Shown piece after piece: positions 37,960 through 59,484 of a stretch of 64,000 nucleotides of DNA. A program made the position numbers and the translations under genes. The first letter of the stretch is position 1. Each line of letters begins with the position of its first letter. The stretch is from an uncultured Alphaproteobacteria bacterium (GTDB lineage Bacteria; Pseudomonadota; Alphaproteobacteria; RF32; CAG-239), in assembly GCA_944391405.1 (NCBI GenBank), contig CALXTN010000006.1:13885-77884 (forward strand), given 5' to 3'. The notes beneath the pieces are model-generated. The model was not told the DNA's origin and searched no databases. It saw only the letters and a program-made list of their open reading frames with translations.

Positions 37960-38650
37960 ATAAAAAAAGATACCCCCGCGTAAAACGCGGGGTTCTTCAT
38001 ATGCGGCTAAAAGCCTTTAGCACTGGCATCCCCTGAACGGGGTACCCATAATTCTGCCAGACGCAATTTGTTACTACCTACCCGTAAACGGGTCATTTAA
38101 GTCCATTGTTAGTTGTTCTGCTAATTGGTCTTGTTTAAGTTGATCTTTAATATATTCCCTGATTTTTTCTGTGTTCTTACCTGTTGTATCAACATAGTAC
38201 CCCTTGCACCAAAATTCTCGGTTTCTATATTGATATTTTATACTACTCCACCTTTCATATATCATTAAACTACTCTTTCCTTTGAGAAATCCCATAAATC
38301 CTGATATACTGATTTTCGGTGGAACTTTTACTAATATATGCATATGGTCTGGACACGCTTCTCCTTCTATAATTTCCACTCCCTTCCATTTACACAATTC
38401 TTTCAGTATTTTTACTATTTCTAACCTTTTACTACCGTAAAAGACTTTTCTCCTATACTTTGGTGCAAATACTATATGATATTTTCAATTCCATGTTGTA
38501 TGTGATAATCTTTCTATCTTAGTTTTCATTACTGTCCTCCAAATAGGTTGTTTTGCGTCTTGGCAGACTGCAAAACTTTAACCTATTTGGAGCGTTTTGT
38601 CATCCTCACCGCTATAAGCTTTACTGAACCACGCGTCTAACGCGTGGTTT
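37960..38650 (-). mobile_element. IS200-type insertion sequence (IS200/IS605 family, tnpA only); boundaries approximate
   Basis: Y1 transposase reading frame. Left-end perfect hairpin AACCACGCGT-cta-ACGCGTGGTT (38627-38649). RBS-occluding stem CCAAATAGGTT/AACCTATTTGG (38539-38590) overlaps the GGAGGA SD. 3' hairpin CCCCGCG-taaaa-CGCGGGG (37974-37992). Imperfect inverted copies of TCTGCCA(A)GACGCAA at 38053-38066 and 38553-38567. Confidence 0.75.
38074..38529 (-). pseudogene. tnpA: IS200/IS605 family Y1 transposase TnpA interrupted by one in-frame TGA (codon 15)
   Basis: Minus strand from ATG 38529 reads MKTKIERLSHTTWN*KYHIVFAPKYRRKVFYGSKRLEIVKILKELCKWKGVEIIEGEACPDHMHILV.... The TGA at 38485-38487 sits where homologs have Cys (W-x-C-KYH). 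The ORF track shows only the 107-aa tail (38074..38397). Confidence 0.75.
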
Positions 38651-41226: not shown

Positions 41227-42012
41227 TTACAAAGGAACAATTTCACCGTCATCAGGCACAATAACTTGCGCATCGAGATAATGTTTAGAAACAAAATCTT
41301 TAACCTCTTGACGTCCAATCATCGCATGCGGAACAGCATCCAAATGCGTAATAATCACTTTTGCCTCTGGCGCAGCCAAACAAACTTGCCTTATATCATC
41401 AAGTCCCATAATGATAGAGCCGCTATCCGTAAACTGAGCATCGGCAGCGTTAAGCGCAATGATTTCAGGATGATATTTTTTGAGCGTCTTTTCAACATTA
41501 TCAAACCAAATCGTATCGCCGGCCAAATAAAATGTCTTTTCATCCTTGTTTTCAAAAACCACCCCGCTGGCCGTCGCGCGCAAGTGAGTTGCGTCATAAT
41601 ATTTTTGTGTTGTTTCCGGATGTCCGTGCAAACAATCCACCCTAAATAACGTCACATCATTAAAGCGTACTCCGTCATAGCTAAGTGGGCGTACATCAGC
41701 AAAACCGAAAGCTTTAAGCATTTCGGCATCTTTTTCATCTTGCACAAACAGCGGTATGTTTTTAGCCAATACTTTTGCGGCAAATTCGTCAAAATGATCC
41801 GGATGCATATGTGTCACAATAACCGCATCAATGCCTTGCACAATCTTTTCATCTTTCATCGGAAGGTCAGCCGTCGGCCAACGCTTATCCGGAAAATGAC
41901 AAACTTCTAAAGGCGGATAAAAATTTTTGGGCGCAAAAAACGGATCAATTAAAAACGTACATCCGCCATACATAAGTTTAACCGTTGCGCCGCGAATTTG
42001 TTGAAATTGCAT
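41227..42012 (-). CDS. MBL-fold metallo-hydrolase
   Basis: HxHxDH motif (THMHPDH). ATG 42012 lies after AAGGAGG; the ORF track start at 42015 is TTG. Confidence 0.8.
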   Translation of the reverse strand: MQFQQIRGATVKLMYGGCTFLIDPFFAPKNFYPPLEVCHFPDKRWPTADLPMKDEKIVQGIDAVIVTHMHPDHFDEFAAKVLAKNIPLFVQDEKDAEMLKAFGFADVRPLSYDGVRFNDVTLFRVDCLHGHPETTQKYYDATHLRATASGVVFENKDEKTFYLAGDTIWFDNVEKTLKKYHPEIIALNAADAQFTDSGSIIMGLDDIRQVCLAAPEAKVIITHLDAVPHAMIGRQEVKDFVSKHYLDAQVIVPDDGEIVPL

Positions 42013-42082
42013 CAAATCCTCCTTAATTTAGTCATTAAAACCATAAAAAAAATCAGCGTCTAAAATAGATATAATCCGACCA

Positions 42083-42177: not shown

Positions 42178-42204
42178 TAAAAAAGCGCCCCAAAAAAGAG
42201 CGCT
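42178..42204 (-). terminator. intrinsic terminator after the SAA-like two-gene unit
   Basis: Minus-strand AGCGC-N11-GCGCT followed by TTTTTTA. Confidence 0.55.
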
Positions 42205-42205: not shown

Positions 42206-42559
42206 TTAGTCACTACGGCATCTATGCTCATTGTAATCATATACTTGACCATTTTGCAAACAAAAAGACACCGTTCTTGCTTCATAAATACCTGACACCA
42301 GATTATTCATGGCACAATACCCTATAAAAGACACTACCGAGATGATGTATAGAATACGTTTATAACGAAATCTAAAAAAGAAAGCACAACCTAAAGAAAT
42401 AAAACAAACAAGCATTACAAAGGCATATGCAAATAAAACAATCCCCCCTATTGAGTTTTGAACAATAAAATAATCTTCTAAAAATGCTATCAATAACAAA
42501 GATAGAATAATGAACTTAAAACTCAAAAATATTCCCTTTTGTAATGTTATTTTTGTCAT
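42206..42559 (-). CDS. small polytopic membrane protein (117 aa) with Cys-containing C-terminal tail
   Basis: ORF track gives 42206..42679, which overlaps the upstream gene. ATG 42559 (MTKITLQKGIFLSFKFIILSLLL...) follows GAGGAA and starts 17 nt after the upstream stop. Confidence 0.55.
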   Translation of the reverse strand: MTKITLQKGIFLSFKFIILSLLLIAFLEDYFIVQNSIGGIVLFAYAFVMLVCFISLGCAFFFRFRYKRILYIISVVSFIGYCAMNNLVSGIYEARTVSFCLQNGQVYDYNEHRCRSD

Positions 42560-42575
42560 TTTACACATTTCCTCT

Positions 42576-43106
42576 TCAATATCTTTTATAGTGTGTCGGA
42601 CACGTTTCTTGTAAACTTTTTCCTTGTCTAGCCCCTTCTCTCCCACGAGCATTTGCCCATAAATCACGCTTACAATCATCTATTGGATATTTAAAAATAT
42701 CTTTTGCCTCTTTCAAATACCCACCAATAGTTGATACAACCGAGCCATACTTTCCCCGAGAAGCTGCCTCATAATGAGCTTTACAATGAAAGAACGTATC
42801 GCTAGTCTTCAATTCAAGTTCATTCATTTTATTAAAATTACGCCATAAATCTTTAACAGGAGCAACCAAGCCACTTCTAACTTTACCTTTAGGATATTGA
42901 TAATCTTTTATATAATTGTCAAGTTCTTTTGCTGTGGCATCTCCATAATGTTGGGTTTCTTTTGTCTCATCAATTCCCTGCTCTTTCATCAACATCTTAA
43001 TCACTGTCCGGCGATTGGATAAATCAAGCTTATTAATTGCCTCACGTTGATGATCTGTAATATTTAACTCACTAGGTATTTCCATAAAAAAATCAAAATC
43101 AGACAT
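42576..43106 (-). CDS. serum amyloid A (SAA)-like domain protein with a ~75-aa N-terminal extension
   Basis: VKDLWRNFNKMNELELKTSDTFFHCKAHYEAASRGKYG...DLWANARGREGARQG...THYKRY aligns with vertebrate SAA [38 protein letters not shown]...DQAANEWGRSGKDP...LPEKY. No signal peptide. Confidence 0.75.
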   Translation of the reverse strand: MSDFDFFMEIPSELNITDHQREAINKLDLSNRRTVIKMLMKEQGIDETKETQHYGDATAKELDNYIKDYQYPKGKVRSGLVAPVKDLWRNFNKMNELELKTSDTFFHCKAHYEAASRGKYGSVVSTIGGYLKEAKDIFKYPIDDCKRDLWANARGREGARQGKSLQETCPTHYKRY

Positions 43107-43121
43107 ATTAAATTCCTTTCA

Positions 43122-43154
43122 TAAAAAAAAACGGCTAACATTTTGCCAACCGTT
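43122..43154 (-). terminator. terminator-like hairpin plus T9 in the leader immediately upstream of the SAA-like gene RBS
   Basis: Minus-strand AACGGTT-N11-AGCCGTT (with G-U pairs) followed by T9, then GAAAGGAATTTAAT-ATG. Confidence 0.5.
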
Positions 43155-43213
43155 GCATTTAAACCAAAGAGCCGTACTCTCATATACAGCTCAAGACACA
43201 AATAATCAGATAC

Positions 43214-43240
43214 AAAAAAAGCACTCCTTCTAGAGAGTGC
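43214..43240 (-). terminator. intrinsic terminator after tRNA-Glu
   Basis: Minus-strand GCACTC-tctagaag-GAGTGC followed by T7. Confidence 0.65.
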
Positions 43241-43249
43241 TATTTGAAT

Positions 43250-43324
43250 TGGTGATCCCAACGGGATTTGAACCCATGTTACCGCCGTGAAAGGGCGATG
43301 TCCTAACCACTAGACGATGGGACC
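43250..43324 (-). tRNA. tRNA-Glu (anticodon UUC), CCA encoded
   Basis: I folded it by hand: GGTCCCA tc GTCT agtggtta GGAC a TCGCC cTTTCac GGCGG taac ATGGG ttcaaat CCCGT TGGGATC a CCA. Total 75 nt. Confidence 0.95.
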
Positions 43325-45043: not shown

Positions 45044-48000
45044 CTATTTTAAATGATTCCACAAACGTTTTAGAGCTTTATCCATATATCGATCAACATG
45101 TGACAGCAGATTTTTTGCAGCTTTGCTATATTGATTTTCATTAAGAAAAATAGAGTTTGAAATATTGACCAACCAAGAGCAATAAAAATAGTTTAATATA
45201 TCCATATATATATTATGAGGATATGCTTTATGAGATAAACTATTCCATAACTGTTGCGCAAAAAACTCTTCAATAGCCGTATCAATTGCCTCATTAGGAG
45301 TTGCAAAGGACATAGACCCGATTGATAAAAAAGTCGAACCACTGTGATGAACAAGTTGATACTTACCTTTACGTTTAACAATTTTATAATCATTAAACAA
45401 CATTTCTCTCACATCATCAACCATATGAGTATACGCAGTCCGCAATTTAGAATCAGTATTATAGAGAGATGTTTTAAACAATTGGCTTAAATAGTGAAAA
45501 GTTTCATGAATAATTGTCTGCTCATCAGCCTCTTCAAACAAATAAATAGTTTTATCAGCAATTTCATATGCGCCTTTGGCTAATTTTTGCATAACAAGAA
45601 CCATGCCGTCAAAAGGTGCTTTGATTTTATCATCATCATCAGGAATACTATTCATTTTTTCAAGCTCAATATCCATAAAATCTTTATCAGTTTTAGCACT
45701 ACTTGTAAATTTATGCAAAGCCGAAAAAGAAAGTTTTGTTCTATCAACCGACGGTATTTTTATTCTATCATCCCAAAAAGCAAAAGTTCTCTGCCAATCA
45801 GAATAATTTTGCCGCTGTAACATAGATCTAACTTCAATATCACCATGAGAAACTGCCCCCGCCCAAGGAAACGGAGCAGTATGAATATATCCGGAAGAAA
45901 TTCTTGAAGCGACAAGCTCAAAATTATTAAACCTACTAATCATTTCGCGCAACGAGGAATAAGCAAAATTGCCCAATTGACGCTCATGAGGATCTAAAAT
46001 ACGATTAGCATATTTCTCATCAACTTTTCGATACAGCAAATCAAAATCAATTTCCTTATATTTAAGCCGACGAGTAGATTTAGAAGATAAAGTTCCATTT
46101 TTTTTATTTTTTTTACTTTGACTTTTATAAATATTTAAAAGAGGCAGCGGCACTTCTTTATCAACCCAAAAGGTATCTGTTTTTTCATCGGGAAGATAAG
46201 TTGTCACAAACTCTGTTAATAAAAAGCCTAAATTTTTCATCGCCTTCTCTTTAGCCAAATAAAAATGCCTATCCATAAAATTACGTCTCTGAGAAGGAGT
46301 AAGTGCCAAATCAAAATGCTCACGCATTTGAATAGCAAAAGCAGCCCCTTTCATGAGCAAATCTTTTAAATTAGAATAATCAAATTGCTTAGGATCAATT
46401 TCCAAAACATCATTTTCAGTATTTTTATCCCGATAGAAATGATATCCTTCATTATTATCAAGTTCAACAAAACGCACAATTACCTTTTTCAAATCCGGAT
46501 AATTTTTATAAAGTTCATTATGCTCAAGCAAATCGTCCAATTTAAATTCTTTTTTATCTAAAAGCAATTGCCGTTGCATCCAATAAGTACGCAAACTTTC
46601 ATCACCATCATCAATTCGTTGCTTAATAAACTCGTTTGCTGCCTGAATATCACGCTGCTCTGCTTGTTTAGCAAAATCAATTTCTTTATGAAATCGATAG
46701 ATACGATAAATTCTATCCAAAAAAAACATCATAAGAGATTTATTAGCATTGCTCCAAGAGCGATAACGAGGAAGAGATAAAAACTTTTCACTCATAGACA
46801 ATGGAATATGTGCCTTTCGATACAATGAGGACAAATAATTTGCATTAAAATAGGGTTTATGGTAGTCCCCTTGCCCCGCAAGATACAATTGATAAAATTT
46901 GTTAACCGTCAAATCATCCATCATATCACCATTTTCAAAAATCCCCATACGGCGCATAGCATCTTGTCGTTTTTCAGCCTCTTCAATAAGTTCAGCATCT
47001 AATTTCTGTACCAATTTCATAAATCCATCGGTCTTAGCGTTATTTTCTTCTAAAAATTTATCCAATCTTTCGATATTGGCATTTTCATCTAACGAACTTT
47101 CCCAAATATCACTTAAAAACCCAAAAAAAGATCTTTCTTCTAAAACCGCACGAATAATTTTCAACTGTTCCTCTGTATAAAATTTGTCAGGTGATTGAAA
47201 ATTTGTATTGACCGCTCTATGTTTACGCCAAGAAGCGTGAGAAGAATTGTACAAATTTTCTATTTGCTGCTGTTGTTCATTAGAAGATGAAAGATTATCA
47301 TCTGTTTTAGCATGACCTCCATCAATCTCATTTACAGACATATTTTTCAGACGTAAATCCCAAAACAATTCTCCCTTATTGTTTTCATGAATATCAATAC
47401 GAACATTTTTGCGTTTTCCGTTAATCTCTATTGGTAAATAAGCATAGTAAGAAGCTTTAATTTTAGAGTTTGATTTTTTATTTTCTGTTTTTGAAAGTGT
47501 ATAAAACACCGCTTTTTCTGCTAAAATTGGTAAATAAGGGATCAAGAATTTAACATCATCGCTTAAATTGTCAGTTGATGATTTTTTAATTTCAATCTCT
47601 TTATTAAGGGAAGGATTAAAAATTTTCATGCCATGATAAGAATTGAGTAAACTATCCATAGCTACATTAAATTCTTCCGCTGAAATATCTTTATAATTAG
47701 AAGTTTGAACAACAACAGCCGCGTCTGAAGGATTAACATCCACAACACGATTACCCCCTGTTTTAATATTTTCATCAACAATTTGAGTACTATCCTCATT
47801 TGAAAATCTGGAAAAACGATTTGCTTCACCCTGTTTTTCTCTATTTTCATTAGCAGAAGTAAGATTGGCAATATCTTCATCTTCCAAGACCTCAAATTTA
47901 TCTCTATCAATCAATAATTGTTTTAATGTTTTATCACGAATATAAGCAGACTCAGAACCATTCTGCTTAAGTTTATTAGTATTATAGCGAGCACTATAAC

Positions 48001-50239
48001 TGCTAACTAAAGTCTCAACATTGTTATCAATTTTTTCTTGACGTTGTTTAATATCACTTTCAAAAGCAGCTTCTGGATCAGTAAAGGAAGGCTCCCCATT
48101 TCTATTTACACCATAAGAAAAATGTCCGTTATAATTTTTATCCAAAAAATCAATAAAATCGTTATAGATATTATTATAAATCTCTTCAACAACTTCTGCA
48201 TCTGAAACCACCTTTGTTTCAAATTCGCGTAAATTGATAATTTCTTGCGCTTCCTGAGCTTCTAATTTTTGAATATAAGATTTCCAATAGTGTTTAGGCA
48301 AATCATTCTCATTAACATTAAAATCGAATTTCAATTTAGCTTTTGAATCATCAATTTCAAAACGCCATTTGCCATCTGAACCATGATACCAACCTGTTCT
48401 GGCCCAAATAGCACGAGGATTAGCTTTTTTAGCTTCCATAGCATAAGCTTGTTTAAGCTTCAAGATATCAGCATTTTTAGCTCCGACACCCCCAAATTGG
48501 AATAAAAGCTTAGCTTCGGGAGAAGTTTGTTGTTTAAATTTTTCATATGTCATTTTTTTAATTTCAGGCAACCCCTCAAGAAGTATTTTTTGAGGAGAAA
48601 AAGATTTATCAACATTATAAAAAGCCATAATATTAGCTTGAATCATACTAGCCGTAATTTTAGCCTTTGTTTCATCATGAGTAGCCTGAAAAGCCCGTTG
48701 ATACATTTCATCGTAAATTTTTCGAAAAGCAGCCACATCAGCCTTTCGAACAGAACGTTCTATAGGTTTAGCTTGTGATGCTTCATATTCAAGAGCTTTA
48801 AGATTTTGTTCCAAAGAATAAGAAAACACTTTACTAAACGCATCAGGTTTACTTTGCAACAAGTCCATAGCATTTTTCTTAAACAATTCAATATCTTCAT
48901 CGCTAACTCCCTTAAGTAACATACGTCTCCGTGCATTTTCATAAGATTTCTGTGCATAATAAACTGTACCATCAGCAGCCATCAAGGCAGAAGTTCCCGC
49001 AATCGCACCAATTGCACTTTCCACAAGACCTTCAAATAAATCTTGCGTATCATCAATACCGACTTGACGAACCAAATTTTCTGCCAGTAACTGTTGAAGA
49101 ACTTCAGTACCAGCTTCACGAAGCGGTGCACCGAGTATTTCTTTGGCAATCATTTTTGAGGTCATTTTCGCACGATTTTCAATCTGTTTAGGCAACGGAT
49201 TAAATATTTTATCAATAGCAAACGTGGCTCCCCCTGAAAGCAAAGCTAAAGTATTAGCCGTATTGATATTTTGTTCTTTATCATAAGACTCATTAAAGAC
49301 TTGAGCAGCCCCTCCTCCGGCAAACAAAGCATAAGTAGGCGCCGCACCGATATATTTCGCCATCGTTCCCATAGACAAAACCTGAGCTGATCCCTGCCCT
49401 AAAACATTTGCTAATTTCTCCCAACTTGGCTCATTATTATATGCCGTTTGCATTGGAGCAAGAACAGAACTTGTATCAACCTTTTCCGCATATTGTTGAA
49501 ATTTATCACCAATATTTTTAAGCAAAGTTCCGGCTTCGGGCACAAATAAAGTTGCCCCTGCGGTCATCGCGCCAATTCCAAAATTTTTATTTTCAATATT
49601 TGCCCCAAAAGCTGAAAGTACATTTCCAATCATACGTAAATTATCGGAAGTAAATCCGCGAGTAGAAGCTTTAAGGGCTTCTTTACTAAAAGTAGCAGCA
49701 TCAAACTCTCCCATTTTCCCTTCATCATAAGCCCATTTATACTGAGCCACATCTTCACCAAAACTTTCCAAAGCATTCCAATAGGTACGCAAATCTGTTG
49801 CTTGTTTAAGCCAATCGCCAACTGCCTGAAAACTGGAATGAGGTTTTTGCTCATCAATACTATCGGCAGAAAGTTTTGGAAACTGTAAATTATGTTCATT
49901 TTCAAGATATGCAAAAGGCATATTTTCATCACTGTCACCATCACCAAAATCTAGCTGTAAATCTTCCGCTTTGGGCTCATGAGTGCTATCATCAAAAGTC
50001 GTATCGTTAACAACTTCAACCGAAGTATTTAAAGCATCATCATTTGAATTTTTAAAATTTGCAATTTCTGAGATATGGGGTTCATTGAGAAATTGTTCAT
50101 CCGTATTTTGAATTGGTAAGATGGTTTGTTTAACTTTATCGTCACCATAAGGCACCGGCGTCATCATCAAATTGTTCTGACTGGTAGAAGACTGAGCATT
50201 TGGCTCTATCGAAATAAAATCATTATCAACTGTACTCAT
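45044..50239 (-). CDS. giant (1731 aa) phage internal/ejection 'polyvalent' protein (T7 gp16 position) with C-terminal HExxH motif
   Basis: Gly/Ala-rich hydrophobic segments (GIGAMTAGATLFVPEAG, APTYALFAGGGAAQVF, LALLSGGATFAI). TGWYHGSDGKWRFEIDDS block resembles those in large polyvalent phage/ICE proteins. EEADEQTIIHETFHYLSQLF contains a zincin-like HExxH. Confidence 0.6.
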   Translation of the reverse strand: MSTVDNDFISIEPNAQSSTSQNNLMMTPVPYGDDKVKQTILPIQNTDEQFLNEPHISEIANFKNSNDDALNTSVEVVNDTTFDDSTHEPKAEDLQLDFGDGDSDENMPFAYLENEHNLQFPKLSADSIDEQKPHSSFQAVGDWLKQATDLRTYWNALESFGEDVAQYKWAYDEGKMGEFDAATFSKEALKASTRGFTSDNLRMIGNVLSAFGANIENKNFGIGAMTAGATLFVPEAGTLLKNIGDKFQQYAEKVDTSSVLAPMQTAYNNEPSWEKLANVLGQGSAQVLSMGTMAKYIGAAPTYALFAGGGAAQVFNESYDKEQNINTANTLALLSGGATFAIDKIFNPLPKQIENRAKMTSKMIAKEILGAPLREAGTEVLQQLLAENLVRQVGIDDTQDLFEGLVESAIGAIAGTSALMAADGTVYYAQKSYENARRRMLLKGVSDEDIELFKKNAMDLLQSKPDAFSKVFSYSLEQNLKALEYEASQAKPIERSVRKADVAAFRKIYDEMYQRAFQATHDETKAKITASMIQANIMAFYNVDKSFSPQKILLEGLPEIKKMTYEKFKQQTSPEAKLLFQFGGVGAKNADILKLKQAYAMEAKKANPRAIWARTGWYHGSDGKWRFEIDDSKAKLKFDFNVNENDLPKHYWKSYIQKLEAQEAQEIINLREFETKVVSDAEVVEEIYNNIYNDFIDFLDKNYNGHFSYGVNRNGEPSFTDPEAAFESDIKQRQEKIDNNVETLVSSYSARYNTNKLKQNGSESAYIRDKTLKQLLIDRDKFEVLEDEDIANLTSANENREKQGEANRFSRFSNEDSTQIVDENIKTGGNRVVDVNPSDAAVVVQTSNYKDISAEEFNVAMDSLLNSYHGMKIFNPSLNKEIEIKKSSTDNLSDDVKFLIPYLPILAEKAVFYTLSKTENKKSNSKIKASYYAYLPIEINGKRKNVRIDIHENNKGELFWDLRLKNMSVNEIDGGHAKTDDNLSSSNEQQQQIENLYNSSHASWRKHRAVNTNFQSPDKFYTEEQLKIIRAVLEERSFFGFLSDIWESSLDENANIERLDKFLEENNAKTDGFMKLVQKLDAELIEEAEKRQDAMRRMGIFENGDMMDDLTVNKFYQLYLAGQGDYHKPYFNANYLSSLYRKAHIPLSMSEKFLSLPRYRSWSNANKSLMMFFLDRIYRIYRFHKEIDFAKQAEQRDIQAANEFIKQRIDDGDESLRTYWMQRQLLLDKKEFKLDDLLEHNELYKNYPDLKKVIVRFVELDNNEGYHFYRDKNTENDVLEIDPKQFDYSNLKDLLMKGAAFAIQMREHFDLALTPSQRRNFMDRHFYLAKEKAMKNLGFLLTEFVTTYLPDEKTDTFWVDKEVPLPLLNIYKSQSKKNKKNGTLSSKSTRRLKYKEIDFDLLYRKVDEKYANRILDPHERQLGNFAYSSLREMISRFNNFELVASRISSGYIHTAPFPWAGAVSHGDIEVRSMLQRQNYSDWQRTFAFWDDRIKIPSVDRTKLSFSALHKFTSSAKTDKDFMDIELEKMNSIPDDDDKIKAPFDGMVLVMQKLAKGAYEIADKTIYLFEEADEQTIIHETFHYLSQLFKTSLYNTDSKLRTAYTHMVDDVREMLFNDYKIVKRKGKYQLVHHSGSTFLSIGSMSFATPNEAIDTAIEEFFAQQLWNSLSHKAYPHNIYMDILNYFYCSWLVNISNSIFLNENQYSKAAKNLLSHVDRYMDKALKRLWNHLK

Positions 50240-50274
50240 ATCAAATTCCTAACATAAAAAAAAGCAAAAAACAA

Positions 50275-51924
50275 CTAACCTTTCATAACTGCAAGCCGCC
50301 CTTTAAAATAAAATTTATCGCCAGGAGCCAAATCTGCTTGTATTAATTCTTCATACGAATCAAAACGCGGATAATTAAGTTCTTTTCTCTGCATTTCTCG
50401 AGCAATTTTCCGCATTGTTTCAATTTTATCCTCATTATAAGGTGCTACTTGAGCATATTTTTCCCAAATAGGAAAAACATCATTACCCGAATAAGCCGTT
50501 TGCAGAGTTTGTTTTAATTCTCCAAACGAAACAGCATCCTGAGTAGCGTTTGTTTTAAGTTTCAAATCCTTTGCAACATTATCTAAAGCCAAACGTGAAA
50601 TCTGTTTTTCAATCAAAGGTGTCAACTGACCGCCATTCTTTAACAAATCGGAAGTTAAAGCTGTTTTTTGCGCATAGTAGTTTTGATAAAGGTTCAAAGC
50701 AAATTGCGCTTTATTTTCCATAAACGATTTTGCAGCATAATCACTATTTGTTAAAGATACCGGCATATCAGCAGCAAAAGCCTTATCTGCAAGAACATCA
50801 ATTTCTTTGTCAAACAACAATTCTGCGGTATTTTTTTCCACCTGCGCCGCCATTAATTGATTTTGTAAAGTGGAAGTTTCTTCAAATCCAAGTTTATTTT
50901 GCCGATAAGCATTAATCAAATAGTTAGAAGCATCACAAATTTCCTGAGCTGAAAGTTGTGTCCCTTCATTCATTTTACGCACTAAGCGATACGTTTCCGT
51001 CAACGGTACATCAGAGCGTTGTTCATTATCGCCCCAAAGACTAAATGCATCACTGTCCTCAACATTTTCATCCTTTTGTTGCGACAACACATAGTATTGT
51101 GCCGGAGATATTTCTCCTGTTTCTTTTTTTTGCCATAAATTCTGCAAATCATTTAAACGATTAAGATAAGATAAACGTTTTTGTTTTTCTTGATTTTGCT
51201 GAAAATATTCTGAATTAATAGACTTAGTCTGTTGAATCTGAGCTTTTAATGCAGATTTAGCCGCATCATCACTAAAATAAGCATCAACAGCATTATCTGC
51301 AGCATCAGGATTATTTAAGGCAAGATTAAGAATACCCGTTTTAAGATATCCATCACGATAAGTTTCTTTATCTTTATCGCTCAAAAAGGGAGTACTGGAG
51401 ATTTCATCAACCCCCATCTGTAACAATTTTCTGCCTTTAAGATCATCTTGCGTTTCGGCCAAAAGATTTTGATTATCCGCCAACATAGAATTAAGGCTCT
51501 GCTTACCAAAATCTATTTGCTTTTTAGCAACAATTTTCTGAGCATCATTATGATTAGCCTCGCGAATTTTATCACCATATTTTTTCCAAAAATTCTGAGC
51601 TGTTTCATCTCCATCAAATTGAGAAGCCAAAAGTTTATCGTTATTTTTGATAATATCCTGAAGTTGCTCCGGAGATTGAGCATTTTCAAGAGCCTGTCTT
51701 GTATCCTTCAAAGAAACATCAGCTTGCATAGCCAAGCGTTCATTTTCAGTTTTTTGCATTTTATCGGCTAGCATATCAGCCGTATTAAGCAAAACAGAAT
51801 CTGTATAAGCATTTGTTTCAGAAGCAATAAAACGCCTTGCCGGAGTAGTCACTTGTGCGATAACCGGCCTTTTAGCCATTGCGCCATTTAAACCCATAAA
51901 AGGAATTTTTTGTCTGTTTGCCAT
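50275..51924 (-). CDS. phage internal virion protein (T7 gp15 position), helical
   Basis: Assigned by position; 549 aa, Q/K/E/A/L-rich; no enzymatic motif seen. Confidence 0.5.
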   Translation of the reverse strand: MANRQKIPFMGLNGAMAKRPVIAQVTTPARRFIASETNAYTDSVLLNTADMLADKMQKTENERLAMQADVSLKDTRQALENAQSPEQLQDIIKNNDKLLASQFDGDETAQNFWKKYGDKIREANHNDAQKIVAKKQIDFGKQSLNSMLADNQNLLAETQDDLKGRKLLQMGVDEISSTPFLSDKDKETYRDGYLKTGILNLALNNPDAADNAVDAYFSDDAAKSALKAQIQQTKSINSEYFQQNQEKQKRLSYLNRLNDLQNLWQKKETGEISPAQYYVLSQQKDENVEDSDAFSLWGDNEQRSDVPLTETYRLVRKMNEGTQLSAQEICDASNYLINAYRQNKLGFEETSTLQNQLMAAQVEKNTAELLFDKEIDVLADKAFAADMPVSLTNSDYAAKSFMENKAQFALNLYQNYYAQKTALTSDLLKNGGQLTPLIEKQISRLALDNVAKDLKLKTNATQDAVSFGELKQTLQTAYSGNDVFPIWEKYAQVAPYNEDKIETMRKIAREMQRKELNYPRFDSYEELIQADLAPGDKFYFKGRLAVMKG

Positions 51925-51947
51925 ATATTTTCTCCCAAAAACTCAAA

Positions 51948-52409
51948 TTAAAACAAAGAAGAAAGAGAAGAAGAAAGTCCGCTAAGCAAACTACCACTAA
52001 AACGATTTTTTCCCTCTTTTTTATACTGTTTTGCATTAGCTTCTTCTATTAAAGCTTGATACAAATAATTTTCTGCCTCGCTTTCCACTTTAAAACGTTC
52101 ATTTAAGATATTTTGTTCCAAAGCAGAAGACGTTGTTGCCAAAGCCGTTGTCGTCGTTGGGCTTTCTCCCATTCCCGCCTCTCCTGCCGCAGCCGAAGCA
52201 GAAGCAATTGTGGCACGTTTTTGAGAACGCAGAGCATCTTCATTTCGAGCCCCGCTCAAACGAACATTTTGAGCATTTTGTCGATAAGTTTGCGCATTTT
52301 GCAAAGCCAATTGAGCTTTATTTTCATATTCATTTTGTTCTGCTTTACCTTTTAAGAAACCGGAAGCAAAATTGATACCGGCTTTAATTAAGAGAGCCTG
52401 AGCCACCAT
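51948..52409 (-). CDS. phage internal virion protein (T7 gp14 position), Ala/Ser-rich
   Basis: ORF track gives 51948..52523. ATG 52409 (MVAQALLIKAGINFASGF...) overlaps the upstream stop by about 25 nt. Confidence 0.5.
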   Translation of the reverse strand: MVAQALLIKAGINFASGFLKGKAEQNEYENKAQLALQNAQTYRQNAQNVRLSGARNEDALRSQKRATIASASAAAGEAGMGESPTTTTALATTSSALEQNILNERFKVESEAENYLYQALIEEANAKQYKKEGKNRFSGSLLSGLSSSLSSLF

Positions 52410-52836
52410 AATAAAATTTCCTTTCATAAAGTTGATAAGTTTTTCCACCAAAAAAATTAGCCAACACCCGTACCGATTTAAAACCCAATAAATCCGCAAA
52501 ACGTTTAGCTTGTAAAAAATCATCTTGAACGGTCATAAAGACGCGCCTAATTCCCAAACAAAAAGCCTGCTCAGGAATTTTACGTTCCAAAAAACGAGTT
52601 AATTGCATAAGTTTCCGCCCAATATTTTGCCCAATAAGAGCGTAACATTGAGCCACTTGTTCTCCATGAAACTCAAATACATCAAAACCACAAACCGCTA
52701 AAATATCACCATTTTCACTAACGACGGTATAGGCGGCAATATGTTCAAATCCTTCTGCAAAAATCTGAGCCTCGCGAGCTTGACAAGCTTGCGGCACAAC
52801 AAAAAAAGCATCCCCGCTTTGATAATCTCTAATCAT
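52384..52836 (-). CDS. GNAT-like N-acetyltransferase within the tail/internal-protein module
   Basis: 150 aa with beta-alpha pattern and motif-A-like CYALIGQNIGRKLMQLTRFLERK. ATG 52836 lies after GGAG; the ORF track start at 52842 is TTG. Confidence 0.45.
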   Translation of the reverse strand: MIRDYQSGDAFFVVPQACQAREAQIFAEGFEHIAAYTVVSENGDILAVCGFDVFEFHGEQVAQCYALIGQNIGRKLMQLTRFLERKIPEQAFCLGIRRVFMTVQDDFLQAKRFADLLGFKSVRVLANFFGGKTYQLYERKFYYGGSGSLN

Positions 52837-52896
52837 CTCCAAGCTCCATAAAAAAAGAGAGGCATAAAGCCTCTCCCAATTTCCATCAATTACATA

Positions 52897-55029
52897 TCAT
52901 TCATTCACATCCAAATAAGGCACCAAAGCCAAAATATTCAAAGGAAGCGGTGCCGTTGTTTGGATCAAAAAATTAGCTGCTTGTTCTTTTTGCGTTGTTG
53001 AACCATTAAACAAAATCTCTTTATTTCCCGTAAAAAGCTCCTGAGCATAATTCATAGGAGCATCAACAGGTCGATACAAAATATCCGTCAAAGAACTTTC
53101 ATTTTCACCAATTTGTCCGCCACCTGAAAGATAAAGCGTCAAAAGTACATGATTAATACGTTGTTTTTGACCTATACCGCTTCCAAACTCATTAGGGATA
53201 TAAATATTTTGAGGAATAAACTGACTGCAAATTTTAAGCCCAACAACCAGATGAGCAACAGAAGTTTGAAGTGATATTTTCCCATTATAAACAACTTGTT
53301 CAGGTAAAACAACTCCATCGCCAAAAAGCATAACTTCTTTTCCTTCTAAATGCTCTAATCCTCCAAGTTCCGTAATATCCGTATCATCAGTTTTATCAAA
53401 AATAACAGCCGCATCTAAATAAACAGCATTTTGTCTCATAAAATGAGCTTCTTGCTGTTTTTGAATTTCCAAACTATCAAAACCGACTTGAGAAACAGGC
53501 ATTGTCAGAGGCATTCCATTATCCATCCACTCCACCGTTCTAAAATAAGAATTATTAACCACGCGCTGAACTTCCAACCAAAGTTCATCACGATTATCCT
53601 CCAAATTAGGAATAACCGCCAAACTTTCGATTATACCGGAAACATCATGCCTAGAAAAAGCCGCCACTTCTTGTTCAGAAGAAAAAGTAATTGCGGCCAA
53701 AGTTCCATCTCCAACCAAACACCACAAAACTTTATCGGGAACTTCTTGATAAGCCATAGCCACAATACGGGATTGAAACAAATGTTTTCCTAAAATAGAA
53801 ATATCCGTTTGATCATAGCCGTCGTTATAATAATTATACATCAAATCGCGCAAACTTAAACCATACCTATCCACAAACAAGACATGAGCCCCGATTGAAA
53901 CCGGCATAATAGCCTTGCTTCCAACAGTAGAAATTTGTGAAATGCGAATATTATCAGAAGCCATAGCCTGAGAAGATGTAATAGCATCAATATAAAATTC
54001 AGCAGCCCCCGTTCCGACGAAGAGTGCATCACGTGCGTAAATCCATTTTCCTTCGTTAAATTCTGTACTAAGCACCGGTACAGTAATCGCTGTTTCAGCA
54101 GTAGCCTCACCGCAGTCCATATCAGCAAAATTATTATAATCACCCGAACAAGATAAACAAACATTAGGCCCTGTTTCTGAGTTAATCAAAAAAGCAAAAC
54201 GATTTCTAAAAAAGGCCCCTGAAATTGGATAAGATGTTCCTTGATGTATCATCCCGAGTTCCCAACAAACTGTGCCATCTTCCAGAGCATCCGGTAATCT
54301 GGAAATAACTTGAGCAGACACATGCTGAGCATCTGTAAACTCAGTAATTTTCACAATACCGATACCATCATGAACATATTGCCATGAAACGCTTCCGTCA
54401 GAACGAGTTCCCTCACTGTGAACAGGTTTAATAGAGCCTGTTTGTCCAGTTCCAACCGCCATATAATATTTATTATCAGAAGAACGAATTTCCAAAGCAG
54501 AAACATTAACACCCGCACTCCAAGGTTTTGTATCATCATCTAGCACACGCAATCTAACCAAACGCCCAACATCAGTTTGCGTAAAAACATCATCAGATGC
54601 GATTAACTGAGTCAATCCTGTTTTTTCAGTAACTTGTATCATAATTTCAGAAGTATTCATACTTAAAAACGGCCCATTGCGAAGCTCTAACTCTTCCAAA
54701 CGCCAATCATCATTAGCATAACGTTTCAAGAGCATAATCGGATGATTGGCATTGAAAATATACATAATATCGGAATGCTGAATTGTTTGAATTTTACAAC
54801 ATAATTCGTCATCATCCCACAAATCACTATAGGTGTAAGGAGAAGCAAGTTCAAACGGAGGAAAAGCTTCATCAGGTTCCGAATCATCCGCATCAGAAGT
54901 AGAAATAACATGTGTACGCAACAATTCTCTTTGTGCAAAAAGACGAATTTTAAGATGGCTAAACTCCACCACATAAGCCACGCGATGACTATATTTAAAC
55001 GGAAATAAAAAACTTTTTGCATTAGACAT
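52897..55029 (-). CDS. tail tubular protein B / nozzle (T7 gp12-like), major C-terminal part
   Basis: 710 aa, following gp11-like and the gp12 N-terminal fragment. It starts with the conserved FLFPFKYSHRVAYVVEF-type segment that normally follows the gp12 N-terminal motif. Confidence 0.6.
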   Translation of the reverse strand: MSNAKSFLFPFKYSHRVAYVVEFSHLKIRLFAQRELLRTHVISTSDADDSEPDEAFPPFELASPYTYSDLWDDDELCCKIQTIQHSDIMYIFNANHPIMLLKRYANDDWRLEELELRNGPFLSMNTSEIMIQVTEKTGLTQLIASDDVFTQTDVGRLVRLRVLDDDTKPWSAGVNVSALEIRSSDNKYYMAVGTGQTGSIKPVHSEGTRSDGSVSWQYVHDGIGIVKITEFTDAQHVSAQVISRLPDALEDGTVCWELGMIHQGTSYPISGAFFRNRFAFLINSETGPNVCLSCSGDYNNFADMDCGEATAETAITVPVLSTEFNEGKWIYARDALFVGTGAAEFYIDAITSSQAMASDNIRISQISTVGSKAIMPVSIGAHVLFVDRYGLSLRDLMYNYYNDGYDQTDISILGKHLFQSRIVAMAYQEVPDKVLWCLVGDGTLAAITFSSEQEVAAFSRHDVSGIIESLAVIPNLEDNRDELWLEVQRVVNNSYFRTVEWMDNGMPLTMPVSQVGFDSLEIQKQQEAHFMRQNAVYLDAAVIFDKTDDTDITELGGLEHLEGKEVMLFGDGVVLPEQVVYNGKISLQTSVAHLVVGLKICSQFIPQNIYIPNEFGSGIGQKQRINHVLLTLYLSGGGQIGENESSLTDILYRPVDAPMNYAQELFTGNKEILFNGSTTQKEQAANFLIQTTAPLPLNILALVPYLDVNE

Positions 55030-56086
55030 TATTTCTTCCTTTCAATTCCCAAACTAAATTTCCCTGATAATAAAGTTTCAAAACATTACCGGAAACAACC
55101 CCGACATAATCGGAAAATTGAGTAATATAGTTTCCATTTTCATCATAAGGCCATCGACTAAATTTCGCATGCAAATAAGAAATAGCATTAAGAAATTCAT
55201 TATTTTCCCCATAATAGCTAACTAAAACATCATCATCAGCCGCCCCTTGTACCGCAACACAAGCTCGATATTGTGCATGGTGCATAATCACAGCGTTGTA
55301 AAGGTCATAATTAGTTTGAAAAAACAAACTTTCATCCAATATACTGCCCTCGGCAGGAGCAATTTGATTATAATCCAAAACGACCCCCAAATATCCGTTA
55401 GAAAATTTAATAAGGAAACCACGTCGAAAAGGCCCCGAAGTCATAAAGACATTACAACCAACAAATTTTTCCAAAGTACCCCAATCACCATAATCAATCT
55501 GTGTTTGCTCATCAAGTTGTAAAGAAATATCCAAAGTTTGATCATACTGAACAACAACAGAACCTTTCTGCAAAATATAACCATCCTTAAAAACTTGATA
55601 TTCGACTGTAGAATTTTTTAATACGCGCACAGAATTTCGTTGATATCCGTTAATAACAACAGTGGCATCAGAAGGAACCGTCTGAATAGAAAAAGTATAT
55701 AATTCACTTTTAGAAACTAATAAGACTTCAAGTTGCGTATCTTCCAAAACCACATAATTACCGCTTGTCTGCGAATAACCATCGCAACTAACTTCATAAT
55801 AAAGTTTATCACCGCGAGCCACCGTAATAGAAGTTCTCTCCACCCCATTAATTAAAACTTTAGCTTCAGCAGGCGTCGGTACAATTTGAAATAAAATATC
55901 ATCATCAAGCGGTGTTTGCGCAACAAAATGCGTACCACCGCGTCGTTTCAAACTCCCTTCCACCAAAGGAATAAAATTACGACAAAGCTTTGCTGTTTTA
56001 TCATATTTAGCAATATCCGTCCGCCCCTGCAACCATGGGCTAAGTTCCCCACCGTTAAATTGCATTCTAGTCGGTTTAATACTCAT
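55022..56086 (-). CDS. nozzle N-terminal fragment fused to two PEGA-like domains and an unknown ~170-aa domain
   Basis: MSIKPTRMQFNGGELSPWLQGRTDIAKYDKTAKLCRNFIPLVEGSLKRRGG parallels the T7 gp12 N-terminus (NLKGGISQQPDILRYPDQ...NGW...EGLQKRPP). Two ~60-aa units (VPTPAEAKVLINGV...DGY... and VPSDATVVINGY...DGY...) resemble PEGA domains. The stop overlaps the next ATG (ATGTCTAA). Confidence 0.55.
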   Translation of the reverse strand: MSIKPTRMQFNGGELSPWLQGRTDIAKYDKTAKLCRNFIPLVEGSLKRRGGTHFVAQTPLDDDILFQIVPTPAEAKVLINGVERTSITVARGDKLYYEVSCDGYSQTSGNYVVLEDTQLEVLLVSKSELYTFSIQTVPSDATVVINGYQRNSVRVLKNSTVEYQVFKDGYILQKGSVVVQYDQTLDISLQLDEQTQIDYGDWGTLEKFVGCNVFMTSGPFRRGFLIKFSNGYLGVVLDYNQIAPAEGSILDESLFFQTNYDLYNAVIMHHAQYRACVAVQGAADDDVLVSYYGENNEFLNAISYLHAKFSRWPYDENGNYITQFSDYVGVVSGNVLKLYYQGNLVWELKGRNNV

Positions 56087-56159
56087 CTACATTTCCCCCA
56101 AATAAAAAAAAAGCGCCCGCCAAACGGATACGCAACATCATAAAAAAAACTCAAAAAAG

Positions 56160-56756
56160 CTAATCACCCCAAACCTGACGTACTAACACCCAACTGTTAT
56201 CCGGCACTAATTCTGTATCCTTAGCAATTTCGTTATTCAGTTCAGCTTGTTGAACAAGAGTTAAGAATTCGTTTTCAAGAGCCTGTTTAAGGTTAAGAGA
56301 ATGTTTAATACGCATTGCAAGTTCTGCCGCAACTTTAGCGGCAACAGCTTCTCTAAACAAAGGAGGAAAAGGCATATCATCATCAACAATACGCACATAT
56401 TCAACATCAATACCATCATCAAGCATTGTCACAATGCAATTATTTGCCAATTCATATCCCTGCATTGCATAAGGACGCGGCTCGGTTAAATCTTTTATGG
56501 AAGCACCAAACACTTTCAGCAAAAGTAAACAATCTTTAGGCAATAGATACATAAATTTATCACCGTATTTTTCATCTAAACGCGCTAAACGTTTGGTTAT
56601 AACAGCGAATCTCCAAGGGTAAGAGGAAAGCAATAAATTTTTCACATCTTGATAAATAAGCTCATACGATTTACCAAAAGCGGCATCATAGAGCGAAGCA
56701 ACCGGCGGTTCACCGAGTTTAAGAAGCGCGCGGTTAATAATTTCAATCTTAGACAT
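56160..56756 (-). CDS. tail tubular protein A / adaptor (T7 gp11-like)
   Basis: ATG 56756 lies after GGAGG. INRALLKLGEPPVASL...SSYPWRFA...DDDMPFPPLFREAVAAKVA parallels T7 gp11 VNDILASIGEPPVSTL...SRGWTFN...YDEMPECFRYWIVTKAS. Confidence 0.7.
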   Translation of the reverse strand: MSKIEIINRALLKLGEPPVASLYDAAFGKSYELIYQDVKNLLLSSYPWRFAVITKRLARLDEKYGDKFMYLLPKDCLLLLKVFGASIKDLTEPRPYAMQGYELANNCIVTMLDDGIDVEYVRIVDDDMPFPPLFREAVAAKVAAELAMRIKHSLNLKQALENEFLTLVQQAELNNEIAKDTELVPDNSWVLVRQVWGD

Positions 56757-56771
56757 ACGACCTCCGAAAAA

Positions 56772-56807
56772 GGATAAAACAAAGAGGACGGACAAACGCC
56801 CGCCCTC
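56772..56807 (-). terminator. terminator-like hairpin after the capsid and decoration genes
   Basis: Minus-strand GAGG(g)CGG-N8-CCG(t)CCTC followed by TTTGTTTT. Confidence 0.4.
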
Positions 56808-56868
56808 CGGACTATGGACCTTTTCTTAATAATTTGAGACAAAATAATATACAAACGCCAAGCGAAAC

Positions 56869-57243
56869 TTAGCGAGCCAAATAACCTAAGGTCACACGAA
56901 TTTCGCCGGAATTGGAAGTATTAGAAGTAACCGACGCCGTAACAAAATCTTTTACATCAGCTGGTAATGTAGCCGTCGCCATCAATTCCCCATCTTCAAA
57001 AGATTTTGTTGCTTCAATAGACATAGAGAGCAATTCAGAAAAATCCCCTGTTTTAGTATCACCATGTTTAACGGTAATAGTCACACTATTAGAGATGGAA
57101 ACATCACCAACAGCAAAAGCGTTAACACACAAAGCACCTTGAGTAGAACCGGCCGCAACCACATCTCCCTCGGCAATAGAAGCTTGGTTAAGAGCACCTT
57201 TAGCCAAATCTTCATCATAAACTTTCAAAATATTGTTTAACAT
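56869..57243 (-). CDS. small capsid-associated (decoration/cement-like) protein
   Basis: 124 aa, beta-rich, immediately downstream of the major capsid gene. Assigned by position only. Confidence 0.4.
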   Translation of the reverse strand: MLNNILKVYDEDLAKGALNQASIAEGDVVAAGSTQGALCVNAFAVGDVSISNSVTITVKHGDTKTGDFSELLSMSIEATKSFEDGELMATATLPADVKDFVTASVTSNTSNSGEIRVTLGYLAR

Positions 57244-57267
57244 CCAAAAAAACTCCTAAAAAAGAGA

Positions 57268-58167
57268 TTACGCCAATTCAACAGCCTTTTCAGAACCGTT
57301 TTCAAAGTTATAAGAGGTAATAAAGCGAATACCGTTCCAAGCGGCAAAGCTACGGTTAACATCCATATCACCAGTCATTGTCTGCAACACGTTGCCTTTA
57401 TACTTATTGAGCATAGAAAGCACTTTCGGATGACAGAAGATATAAGTGGAGGCAGGTGTCGCTTTCGCATCGACCAACATATTGTCAATTTGTTCTGCTG
57501 TCGGAATATTATCGGCAGAAATATTAACAATAGCGGAAACGGCGTCTGGGTTAGCAAGTTGCATACCGATATAGCCTTTAATACGAACGCCATACCCAAG
57601 CAAGCCATTAGCGTTTTTATAGAGTTGACCTCCATTAATTGGAGTTGAATCTAAAAGACCGAAACGATTGATATTCTTAGCAGAATAAAGACCTGTCACT
57701 TCGCCAGGAACAAAACGCACCGCAACCATAGAGTAACATTTATCATCCGCACCGGCAGAAACAGCTTTACCATTTTCAACTGCATACGGGATAAAGTTAT
57801 CATAAATAATTTTCTTTTCAGCGGTTTCACCGGCGTGCTTCAAGAGAACAGGAACTTTCTTCGCAAAATATTCGGAAATACCGATAACGGCTGCTTTATC
57901 TTCCGGCACAAAGATTTCCCCACCCAAGATAGACAAGTCAATTTTCTTCAAATTAGAATCAACTTCCATTTCAGGCAACGGTTGGTTAATATCAATAAAG
58001 CCCGCACCGGAAATTTTTGCCACTTCTTCATAAGCGTTCCAAAGCCCGTGAGAAGAAGCCTCAAAACGCATATTATCCAAAATCGGAGAATCATTAGTTA
58101 AATAATCGACATAATGCTCTTGCTTTTGAGACAAAGCAACCGCAATTTCTTTTAATGTACCAGACAT
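57268..58167 (-). CDS. major capsid protein
   Basis: 299 aa, positioned between scaffold and decoration genes, with strong codon-usage regularity. Assignment rests on position and size. Confidence 0.65.
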   Translation of the reverse strand: MSGTLKEIAVALSQKQEHYVDYLTNDSPILDNMRFEASSHGLWNAYEEVAKISGAGFIDINQPLPEMEVDSNLKKIDLSILGGEIFVPEDKAAVIGISEYFAKKVPVLLKHAGETAEKKIIYDNFIPYAVENGKAVSAGADDKCYSMVAVRFVPGEVTGLYSAKNINRFGLLDSTPINGGQLYKNANGLLGYGVRIKGYIGMQLANPDAVSAIVNISADNIPTAEQIDNMLVDAKATPASTYIFCHPKVLSMLNKYKGNVLQTMTGDMDVNRSFAAWNGIRFITSYNFENGSEKAVELA

Positions 58168-58193
58168 TTAAAAAATCCTTTCAACAAACAAAA

Positions 58194-58919: not shown

Positions 58920-58946
58920 TATAAATCCCCTCAAAAAATTAGCATC

Positions 58947-59027
58947 AAAAAAGGCAGCCTCAAACGAGCACTGCCTAAAAAAAACGTCAGATACGATGCG
59001 TAGAAAACGCCCACAAAAAAAGGACGT
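58947..59027 (-). terminator. two terminator-like hairpins plus U-tracts in the leader of the scaffold-capsid genes
   Basis: Minus strand: ACGTCC-tttttttgt-GGGCGT followed by TTTTCT (59007-59027), then a T8 tract, then AGGCAG-N13-CTGCCT followed by T6 (58947-58976). Confidence 0.45.
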
Positions 59028-59068
59028 CAACCACGCCCTAAAACAAACACTATATCCATTATGCAGTC

Positions 59069-59097
59069 ATCATAACTGAGCTCTGACAGGATGTCAA
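59069..59097 (-). promoter_or_regulatory. near-consensus sigma-70 promoter inside the phage late cluster
   Basis: Minus strand reads TTGACA-N17-TATGAT, between the 113-aa gene and the scaffold gene. Confidence 0.45.
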
Positions 59098-59133
59098 TAG
59101 GTTTGGAAACATTTTTGAAAATATTTTTTTACC

Positions 59134-59475: not shown

Positions 59476-59484
59476 TTTTCTCCT

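Follow-up and report, generated by a model that had tools for sequence, protein, structure and literature searches.

A pair of adjacent genes on the minus strand was studied in a 64,000-nucleotide (nt) stretch of contig CALXTN010000006.1 from an uncultured alphaproteobacterium (assembly GCA_944391405.1). This whole stretch is called the window, and positions refer to it unless another locus is named. The first gene (42576–43106) encoded a 176-amino-acid (aa) protein resembling serum amyloid A (SAA), and the second (42206–42559) encoded a 117-aa membrane protein. In animals, SAA is a major acute-phase protein, and its biochemical activity is still debated. The pair is probably a Prok-SAA/Imm-SAA toxin–immunity cassette that is directed against rival bacteria and would act on lipid-linked head groups in the periplasm. 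This reading is carried by the fold and conserved residues of the first protein, its linkage to the second, the pattern of orphan partner genes, and the exchange of the cassette between genomes.

The family names are those of Burroughs, Nicastro and Aravind (eLife 2025, PMC12419801), who place animal SAA in the Lipocone superfamily, alongside the phosphatidylserine synthases and TelC, a toxin with lipid II phosphatase activity. Prok-SAA is a bacterial family in the SAA-Wnt clade, from which these authors derive animal SAA, and is described as the toxin tip of polymorphic toxins (PMC12419801). It is recognized by a fifth helix that is short, by the sNxxGR motif of helix 4, and by the ancestral active site with His in helix 2, Glu in helix 3, and Asp in helix 4 (PMC12419801).

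Fold and Predicted Active Site of the 176-aa Protein

The features listed in the initial annotation, namely both open reading frames (ORFs), tRNA-Glu, and both hairpins, were all recovered in place. The SAA homology that it had proposed was borne out by profile searches. The 176-aa protein matched the Pfam SAA family (PF00277) with 48.9 bits (E = 9.2e-13), above the gathering score of 30.8, and residues 84–164 were placed on profile positions 11–93 of 102. In a phmmer search against the PDB, mouse SAA3 (E = 1.6e-8) and human SAA1 (E = 1.1e-6) were found. NCBIfam gave no match for either protein of the pair, and the Pfam matches to LTXXQ on the toxin N-terminus and to MARVEL on the partner were below threshold and disregarded.

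The structure was predicted by AlphaFold2 (AF2) with 38 relatives as input, and the model had a predicted local distance difference test (pLDDT) value of 81.4. The expected SAA-like fold was obtained: Foldseek against the PDB retrieved SAA3 and SAA1 only (target-normalised TM-score 0.69–0.77, probability 1.00), and the next match had E = 4. The helices of the domain were H1 (82–97), H2 (103–115), H3 (119–136), H4 (142–160), and a short H5 (165–168), and extra helices at 18–25, 29–42, and 47–66 preceded them. According to AF2 and Foldseek, the protein has a soluble domain with a four-helix core and a short fifth helix, as described for Prok-SAA. The residues of the predicted active site, His107 in H2, Glu133 in H3, Asp148 in H4, and the sNxxGR-type stretch A151-N-A-R-G-R156 in H4, were all present in the window protein. 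Their conservation was high among 201 domain sequences, with His107 and Glu133 each kept in 196, Asp148 in 192, Gly155 in 191, and Asn152 in 181 (Asp in 11).

The conserved toxin core comprised residues 54–176, from the helix at 47–66 onward. The preceding N-terminal extension (codons 1–53, 42948–43106, minus strand), delimited by alignment to relatives and AF2, is predicted to hold the helices at 18–25 and 29–42 and the beginning of that at 47–66; it was absent from the relatives of 127–131 aa, which begin at MPKYGDK. These standalone forms, each with its own ribosome-binding site (RBS), were conserved in more than 20 species. No signal peptide was seen in the 176-aa protein; as the initial annotation had held, the N-terminus reads as acidic and not hydrophobic.

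Relation to Bacterial and Animal SAA

SAA had been taken for an essentially animal family whose bacterial members are rare and uncharacterized, and neither part of this claim held. A profile of the window family reached 867 representative clusters (E ≤ 1e-3), of which 332 passed E ≤ 1e-10, and the domain often stood at the C-terminal end of long proteins among them. Seven of eight long proteins with the SAA domain at the C-terminal tip had RHS repeats, and TcdB-midN, SpvB, or FG-GAP regions were found among the eight. Moreover, Prok-SAA and an Imm-SAA with three transmembrane helices had already been described in the eLife 2025 paper, whose supplement sets "Prok-SAA" beside "... TM+[TM+TM+]Imm-SAA" in an architecture string (PMC12419801). 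The Prok-SAA set of that supplement includes close relatives of the window clade with the motifs ...FFHCKANYEA...CPTHHTKYK, such as MBE6462418.1, which ends in ...CPTHHTKYK (PMC12419801). Hence, this kind of system is already catalogued.

The window protein also shared much with vertebrate SAA (SAA1 and SAA3; PDB 4ip8 and 4q5g), namely the four-helix fold (TM-score 0.77, ~30% identity) and the motifs SD.(F/Y)FH, the helix-3 Glu (Glu133 here), and D..AN..GR. In contrast, the animal proteins bear a signal peptide and are secreted as apolipoproteins, have neither the Cys108/Cys169 pair of the window protein nor a partner gene, and form a separate clade. This separation was seen in a maximum-likelihood tree of the 201 domains, in which animals were represented by a pair of PDB segments and a single tandem SAA from a metagenome. 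The animal SAAs formed their own clade with a support of 100/99, whereas the window clade fell in a group with 97/94 support that was nested inside bacterial diversity. Furthermore, the bacterial domains at Rhs tips scored 98–117 bits on the animal-based Pfam model, compared with 49 bits for the window protein. Transfer of SAA from host to bacterium, which the initial annotation had raised, was rejected on the basis of the tree and the Pfam scores. The same results bear on a second reading, in which the protein is a host-directed mimic of animal SAA that was recently acquired from the host and binds retinol or lipoproteins or serves as a receptor ligand. The organism was found in chicken, bird, and rat gut samples, and the AF2 model superposed on retinol-bound SAA3, as such a mimic would have it; with the lack of a signal peptide and the tight linkage to a membrane partner added to the phylogeny and the scores, this reading is very improbable.

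A divergent SAA-like subtype (..DKYKHA..NC.A...ANKIGR..) was observed at L061 8133–8813, L061 10170–10679, and L042 6930–7514 among the fetched loci, which are given L numbers here. It formed a long branch apart from the main gut clade in the tree. The first L061 copy, the only one measured, scored 46.6 bits on Pfam SAA, and this copy and that of L042 were joined to an N-terminal module of ~100 aa.

Partner Linkage, Orphan Genes, and Exchange of the Cassette

For the comparison of gene neighborhoods, 61 loci were fetched and examined by tblastn and by clustering of every ORF. They included 55 related genome loci, all from metagenome-assembled genomes of uncultured Alphaproteobacteria of the gut or rumen, and two loci were present in several of these genomes. 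Only two gene families recurred beside the SAA gene, both directly downstream: family A (44 loci, 53 copies), to which the window partner belongs, and family B (15 loci). The two families were homologous over the third transmembrane helix, the next helix, and the first Cys (hhalign 95%, E = 3.5e-8), and a partner with three transmembrane helices lay directly downstream of the SAA gene in essentially all loci. The effector/immunity layout suggested by the initial annotation gained further support from orphan partners. In L018, L048, L059, and L060, an intact partner gene stood next to a 5'-truncated SAA gene, and extra partner copies were found in L017, L022, and L041. A start-less SAA cassette was located behind full-length genes in L028, and in one species the same 127-aa gene occurred in at least three chromosomal contexts.

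The exchange of the cassette was visible in a comparison with L007 (CASFQO010000002.1), which is from a different genome. The flanks of the two loci were 85–87% identical by blastn; the toxin gene had 0 differences in 531 nt, the partner gene 6 in 354, and the gene of a metallo-β-lactamase (MBL)-fold protein behind them 49 in 789. An identical toxin gene within such divergent flanks therefore indicates recent exchange. The contigs of other strains departed from the window at 42950, the border between N-terminal extension and core, and at 42210, where the tail of the partner is cut; hence, both ends are allelic break points. The cassette has been exchanged among related gut Alphaproteobacteria by recombination, and the immunity genes outlast the toxin genes. 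Orphan immunity genes, displaced cassettes, and recombinational exchange are among the traits by which polymorphic toxin systems are recognized.

These stages of toxin loss with a retained partner, together with the start-less cassette of L028, could also be read as the mark of a remnant, in which the immunity gene is kept against the toxins of neighbors and the toxin gene, having lost its trafficking domain, is no longer deployed and is stored or decaying. The N-terminal extension, unique to the lineage of the window, and the loss of Cys169 in the L008 and P0001 alleles would agree with it. The window copy itself, however, retained every conserved residue, and its toxin gene had an RBS and an ATG; the toxin DNA was identical in the second genome, and the standalone forms of 127–131 aa were conserved with their own RBS across species. 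We therefore regard a remnant as unlikely and retain the toxin–immunity reading.

In the subgroup of loci with family B, the SAA core was joined to a conserved N-terminal module of ~100 aa. Across 94 protein clusters and the neighboring genes, the same module was joined to GH108 (with or without PG_binding_3), pesticin-type lysozyme, VgrG3-C-like, and Tlde1 domains, all of which are directed at peptidoglycan. A shared N-terminal region with variable C-terminal toxins is thus a property of the relatives; the window protein has its own lineage-specific N-terminus of 53 aa.

The module (..YQSPLGY..DSYGVDHS.FST.DELEYQ..YPQYGTNFWG..NNYGFG..) was seen in L039 (4423–4722, residues 1–100) and also in L028, L032, L034, L021, L045, and L061. 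It had no Pfam match and headed at least 94 clusters, many with C-terminal domains of no assigned type. It is a candidate for a new trafficking domain of gut Alphaproteobacteria.

Two further observations concern the arrangement of the cassettes in relatives. A non-coding direct repeat of ~380 nt (92–98% identical), with hairpins and an RBS, stood ahead of each successive toxin/immunity cassette in L005 (1258–1652, 2445–2826, 4561–4712, and 5749–5902) and also in L001–L006. The layout of this array is integron-like, with no recombinase in view, and the L005 repeat had no Rfam match. In L056 (6001–7113) and L057 (6001–7131), the SAA gene was split by ~420 nt encoding an 86-aa partner-like fragment, which looks like a recombination scar within the cassette.

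The Membrane Partner

The 117-aa protein was assigned as the predicted immunity protein from the ORF calls, the AF2 model, its conservation, and the family description. The model (pLDDT 90) contained transmembrane helices at 3–33, 39–61, and 67–87, a helix at 89–102, and a beta hairpin at 106–115. Lys3, Lys8, and Lys15 and the loop R-F-R-Y-K-R (62–67) were positive; by the positive-inside rule, the N-terminus and loop 2 are therefore predicted to be cytoplasmic and the Cys-bearing tail periplasmic. The three transmembrane helices and the position of the gene directly downstream of a Prok-SAA gene correspond to the layout of Imm-SAA. Foldseek of the partner against the PDB gave generic helical bundles only, with E above 1 and no solved relative.

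The initial annotation had described a polytopic protein with a Cys-rich tail. The polytopic part stood; the tail carried only two Cys, C100 and C114, whereas orthologues had four. Most family A tails ended in C-x13/14-C-x3-C-x9-C, and the window partner was a short allele. The orthologues of L018 and L048 (87–91% identical) were similar to it up to 42210, where the last 16 codons, including two Cys, were replaced in the window by a stop and a terminator. Independent two-Cys forms were also present in L023 and L025 and throughout family B; the short tail may therefore still work.

Proposed Mechanism and Comparison With Known Systems

TelC of Streptococcus intermedius is, according to PMC12419801, the sole Lipocone toxin with an experimental test, and it is the only experimental template for the chemistry proposed here. 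It is a lipid II phosphatase delivered as an LXG effector of the type VII secretion system (T7SS); it is active only outside the cytoplasm, and its immunity protein TipC acts at or outside the membrane (PMC12419801). The TelC–TipC pair resembles the window pair in superfamily and differs in that TelC belongs to the Prok-TelC family, comes from a Gram-positive source, and is delivered by the T7SS via its LXG domain, and in that TipC is unrelated to the partner with three transmembrane helices (PMC12419801).

The chemistry, toxicity, and neutralization that we infer for the window pair follow this template. By analogy with TelC, the 176-aa toxin would most likely work on the outer face of the inner membrane, where it would remove head groups attached through phosphate from lipid carriers or from phospholipids. 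The candidate substrates would be lipid II and intermediates linked to undecaprenyl, and such cleavage would block wall synthesis in the rival cell. The 117-aa partner, as modeled, would span the inner membrane of the producer so that the N-terminus lies in the cytoplasm and the tail in the periplasm, and the disulfide-stapled helix and hairpin of this tail would neutralize incoming or self-made toxin. Expression would probably be held low by a terminator hairpin ahead of the RBS. The leaderless toxin might be delivered as Hcp-type cargo of a type VI secretion system (T6SS), or be released and imported like colicin M or pesticin.

Action outside the cytoplasm is suggested by a pair of Cys residues in the toxin. 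Cys108, next to the predicted catalytic His, and Cys169, located in the tail, covaried among 129 sequences (both in 104, neither in 20, mixed in 5), with a Fisher p of 3e-18, a statistic that ignores relatedness among the sequences. A Cys108–Cys169 disulfide is likely from this covariation.

Several points weigh against the toxin–immunity reading, including this neglect of relatedness. The 176-aa protein lacked a signal peptide, a recognized trafficking domain, and a neighboring secretion gene, and no secretion-system gene recurred within the 6 kb flanking each of the 55 loci. The 53-residue extension was found in no other lineage. The L008 and P0001 alleles carried C169S, W149G, and G157R; hence, this sub-lineage may be decaying. 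Imm-SAA is described with a helix, four beta strands, and four absolutely conserved Cys (PMC12419801); compared by this description, the window partner had the helix and two each of the strands and Cys. Low-depth contigs spanning 42245–42732 were found in two metatranscriptome runs, and transcription of this interval is possible; the depth of these contigs was 2–6, and DNA carry-over is conceivable. Moreover, the toxicity, substrate, and neutralization of Prok-SAA as a whole were deduced, and the family was catalogued by computation only (PMC12419801).

Compared with the catalogued systems, the window toxin shares with Prok-SAA the domain family, the predicted His/Glu/Asp active site with its sNxxGR motif, and a short fifth helix, and the pair shares the downstream immunity gene with its architecture of three transmembrane helices and a Cys-stabilized helix and strands (PMC12419801). 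It differs in that the toxin is standalone and leaderless, has the unique 53-aa extension, and has no link to T6SS, MuF, or Rhs, and in that the tail of the partner is cut to two of the four Cys of the Imm-SAA described there (PMC12419801). The window pair thus belongs to a computationally described kind; the ~100-aa module, the enrichment of terminator hairpins, the repeat-flanked arrays, and the short two-Cys immunity alleles are not found in the available part of the paper, and all are modest additions (PMC12419801). According to the Lipocone proposal, animal SAA descends from bacterial toxins cutting lipid head groups (PMC12419801). The cassette is a compact test case for this proposal, with 176 and 117 aa, all predicted catalytic residues, natural alleles, and a clear partner. 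Furthermore, little-known gut Alphaproteobacteria carry a sizeable and actively exchanged set of predicted cell-wall-directed toxins.

Colicin M with Cmi and pesticin with Pim are leaderless bacteriocin systems whose toxins attack lipid II or peptidoglycan in the periplasm of the target cell, and Cmi is a small protein anchored in the inner membrane with a disulfide-containing periplasmic domain. Pesticin offers a further likeness in that the N-terminal module of the relatives is also joined to pesticin-type lysozyme. The folds of colicin M and pesticin are unrelated to the SAA fold, and neither a TonB box nor a receptor-binding domain or lysis gene was recognized in this analysis. The leaderless SAA toxins and the ~100-aa module of relatives could conceivably represent a new bacteriocin-like delivery route without a dedicated secretion machine, in which read-through of the terminator ahead of the RBS controls expression and the 53-residue N-terminus is an unrecognized import or export tag; we give this extension of the toxin–immunity reading only a small chance.

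Hairpins and Expression Signals

The gene order on the minus strand was tRNA-Glu(UUC), three hairpins, the AAGGA of the SAA gene, the 176-aa ORF, the 117-aa ORF, and a terminator. The tRNA (43250–43324), identified by its Rfam match, is the upstream neighbor of the pair and forms the fixed left border of a variable slot. The three hairpins between the tRNA and the cassette, found by hairpin scan on the minus strand, were a hairpin with a T-run at 43220–43241, likely the terminator of the tRNA, one with a weak tail at 43169–43192, and one of 11 pairs followed by U9 at 43121–43154 (stem 43154–43130). The last ended ~15 nt ahead of the SAA start codon, and the AAGGA (~43114–43118) lay between it and the ATG. 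The ATG of the partner gene followed 16–17 nt beyond the SAA stop, with GAGGA ahead of it. That the pair has its own terminator, as the initial annotation had stated, was confirmed: a terminator-like hairpin with a T-run (42178–42204, stem 42204–42184, minus strand, hairpin scan) begins right behind the partner stop, where the similarity to long-tailed orthologues ceases (42210). In total, five terminator-like sites were observed in the region against 0.9 expected from shuffles.

A hairpin of this type before the RBS was a recurrent feature of the SAA genes. When counted as a terminator-like hairpin whose T-run stops no more than 40 nt from the start codon, it preceded 13 of 41 distinct SAA genes, compared with 17 of the 465 remaining genes of these loci (odds ratio 12, p = 4e-8). 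The hairpin of the window was kept in L007 and L008, with the outer pair A-U replaced by G-C in L008, one compensatory change. The hairpin sequences were unrelated between loci, and no Rfam family was matched. In the simplest reading, the SAA toxin is probably transcribed at a low level via terminator read-through, and attenuation control, which the initial annotation had suggested, or regulated anti-termination at this hairpin is possible. Rfam over the region gave the tRNA as the sole match, with no riboswitch or known RNA leader ahead of the SAA gene, and no sigma-70-like promoter was detected by scan between the tRNA and the SAA gene. A by-eye promoter candidate, TTGGCA-17-TTTTAT, within the hairpin before the RBS was unsupported.

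Genomic Slot and Adjacent Phage-Like Block

A T7-like phage structural block occupied 45044–64000, above the tRNA, with genes for the large terminase, portal, capsid, tail tubular protein, nozzle, internal virion proteins, and a 1731-aa LPD23/LPD3 polyvalent protein; rpsF, rplI, rpoD, and dnaG lay below ~37 kb. Four other genomes had the same succession of genes at 67–87% identity, from the polyvalent gene through the 498-aa acidic protein, tRNA-Glu, and the variable slot to the 379-aa secreted protein. In the window, the slot contained the SAA gene, the partner gene, and, as its third gene, that of the MBL-fold hydrolase (41227–42015, minus strand), recognized by Pfam and the comparison of loci. 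The same three genes and two lipoprotein genes were present in L007 and L008, and the MBL gene is part of a block that was 94% identical to these two loci. A truncated SAA gene, the partner gene, and two lipoprotein genes, the latter in the place of the MBL gene, were present in L018 and L048.

The initial annotation had placed the pair on the side of tRNA-Glu where tRNA-targeting islands insert. Such an island was rejected: the 3' 26-mer of tRNA-Glu had no second copy at up to three mismatches within the 64 kb, no flanking repeats surrounded the slot of the pair, and no integrase family turned up among the scanned ORFs at 37–43 kb. An origin as a phage gene or lysis cassette and membership in a known defense system were likewise rejected. 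Neither protein had a relative in IMG/VR (2.9 million viral contigs) or INPHARED (50,697 phage records), neither had a PHROG match, and PADLOC matched no known defense system. Elsewhere, the pair sits in non-phage contexts, e.g., after tuf or deoA. The pair is in a recombination-prone slot beside a prophage-like block and is not a typical phage gene.

These results bear on two readings that start from the phage block. If the pair were the lysis cassette of the adjacent T7-like prophage, a leaderless SAA-fold enzyme attacking lipid II would stand in for the endolysin, and the partner, which has the size and number of transmembrane helices of a class I holin, would be the holin; the place of the pair at the distal end of the late-gene block, past the internal virion proteins, fits. 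However, three terminators and the tRNA separate the pair from the phage genes, other loci are without phage genes, a holin would not be expected as an orphan gene or in arrays, as the partner is found, and the viral collections and PHROGs returned nothing, so that this reading deserves hardly any credence. A suicide or dormancy module at the prophage edge, serving abortive infection or superinfection exclusion, is also improbable, though less so. There, the leaderless Lipocone protein would hit lipid II from within the cell before flipping, with the membrane protein as antitoxin or trigger. The absence of a signal peptide, the terminator that gates the SAA gene, and the distance of only ~2 kb to the T7-like structural module suit this proposal, and intracellular versions of Min-Wnt and TelC have been proposed to act in antiviral immunity (PMC12419801). 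Against it stand the negative PADLOC and viral searches, the non-phage contexts in other genomes, the joining of the toxin core to a module that also bears exported-type peptidoglycan hydrolases, and the covarying Cys pair, which, with the outward Cys tail of the partner, points to the periplasm. The toxin–immunity cassette directed against rivals thus remains the preferred reading of the pair.

Three minor observations concern the surroundings. The tRNA-proximal end of the phage block, with the genes of the polyvalent and 498-aa acidic proteins, occupied the same chromosomal place in L007, L008, L018, and L048, and the T7-like block looks more like an old element, vertically kept or domesticated, than a recent prophage. 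The two lipoprotein genes behind the partner in relatives, which are missing from the window, were small paralogs (148 and ~165 aa, each with a lipobox) located at L018 6792–7872, L048 6696–7802, L007 8066–9141, and L008 8064–9154, and they may be further orphan immunity genes. Finally, a 107-aa fragment of an IS200-like insertion sequence (Y1 transposase) was located at 38074–38397 of the window, between the housekeeping genes and the variable slot.

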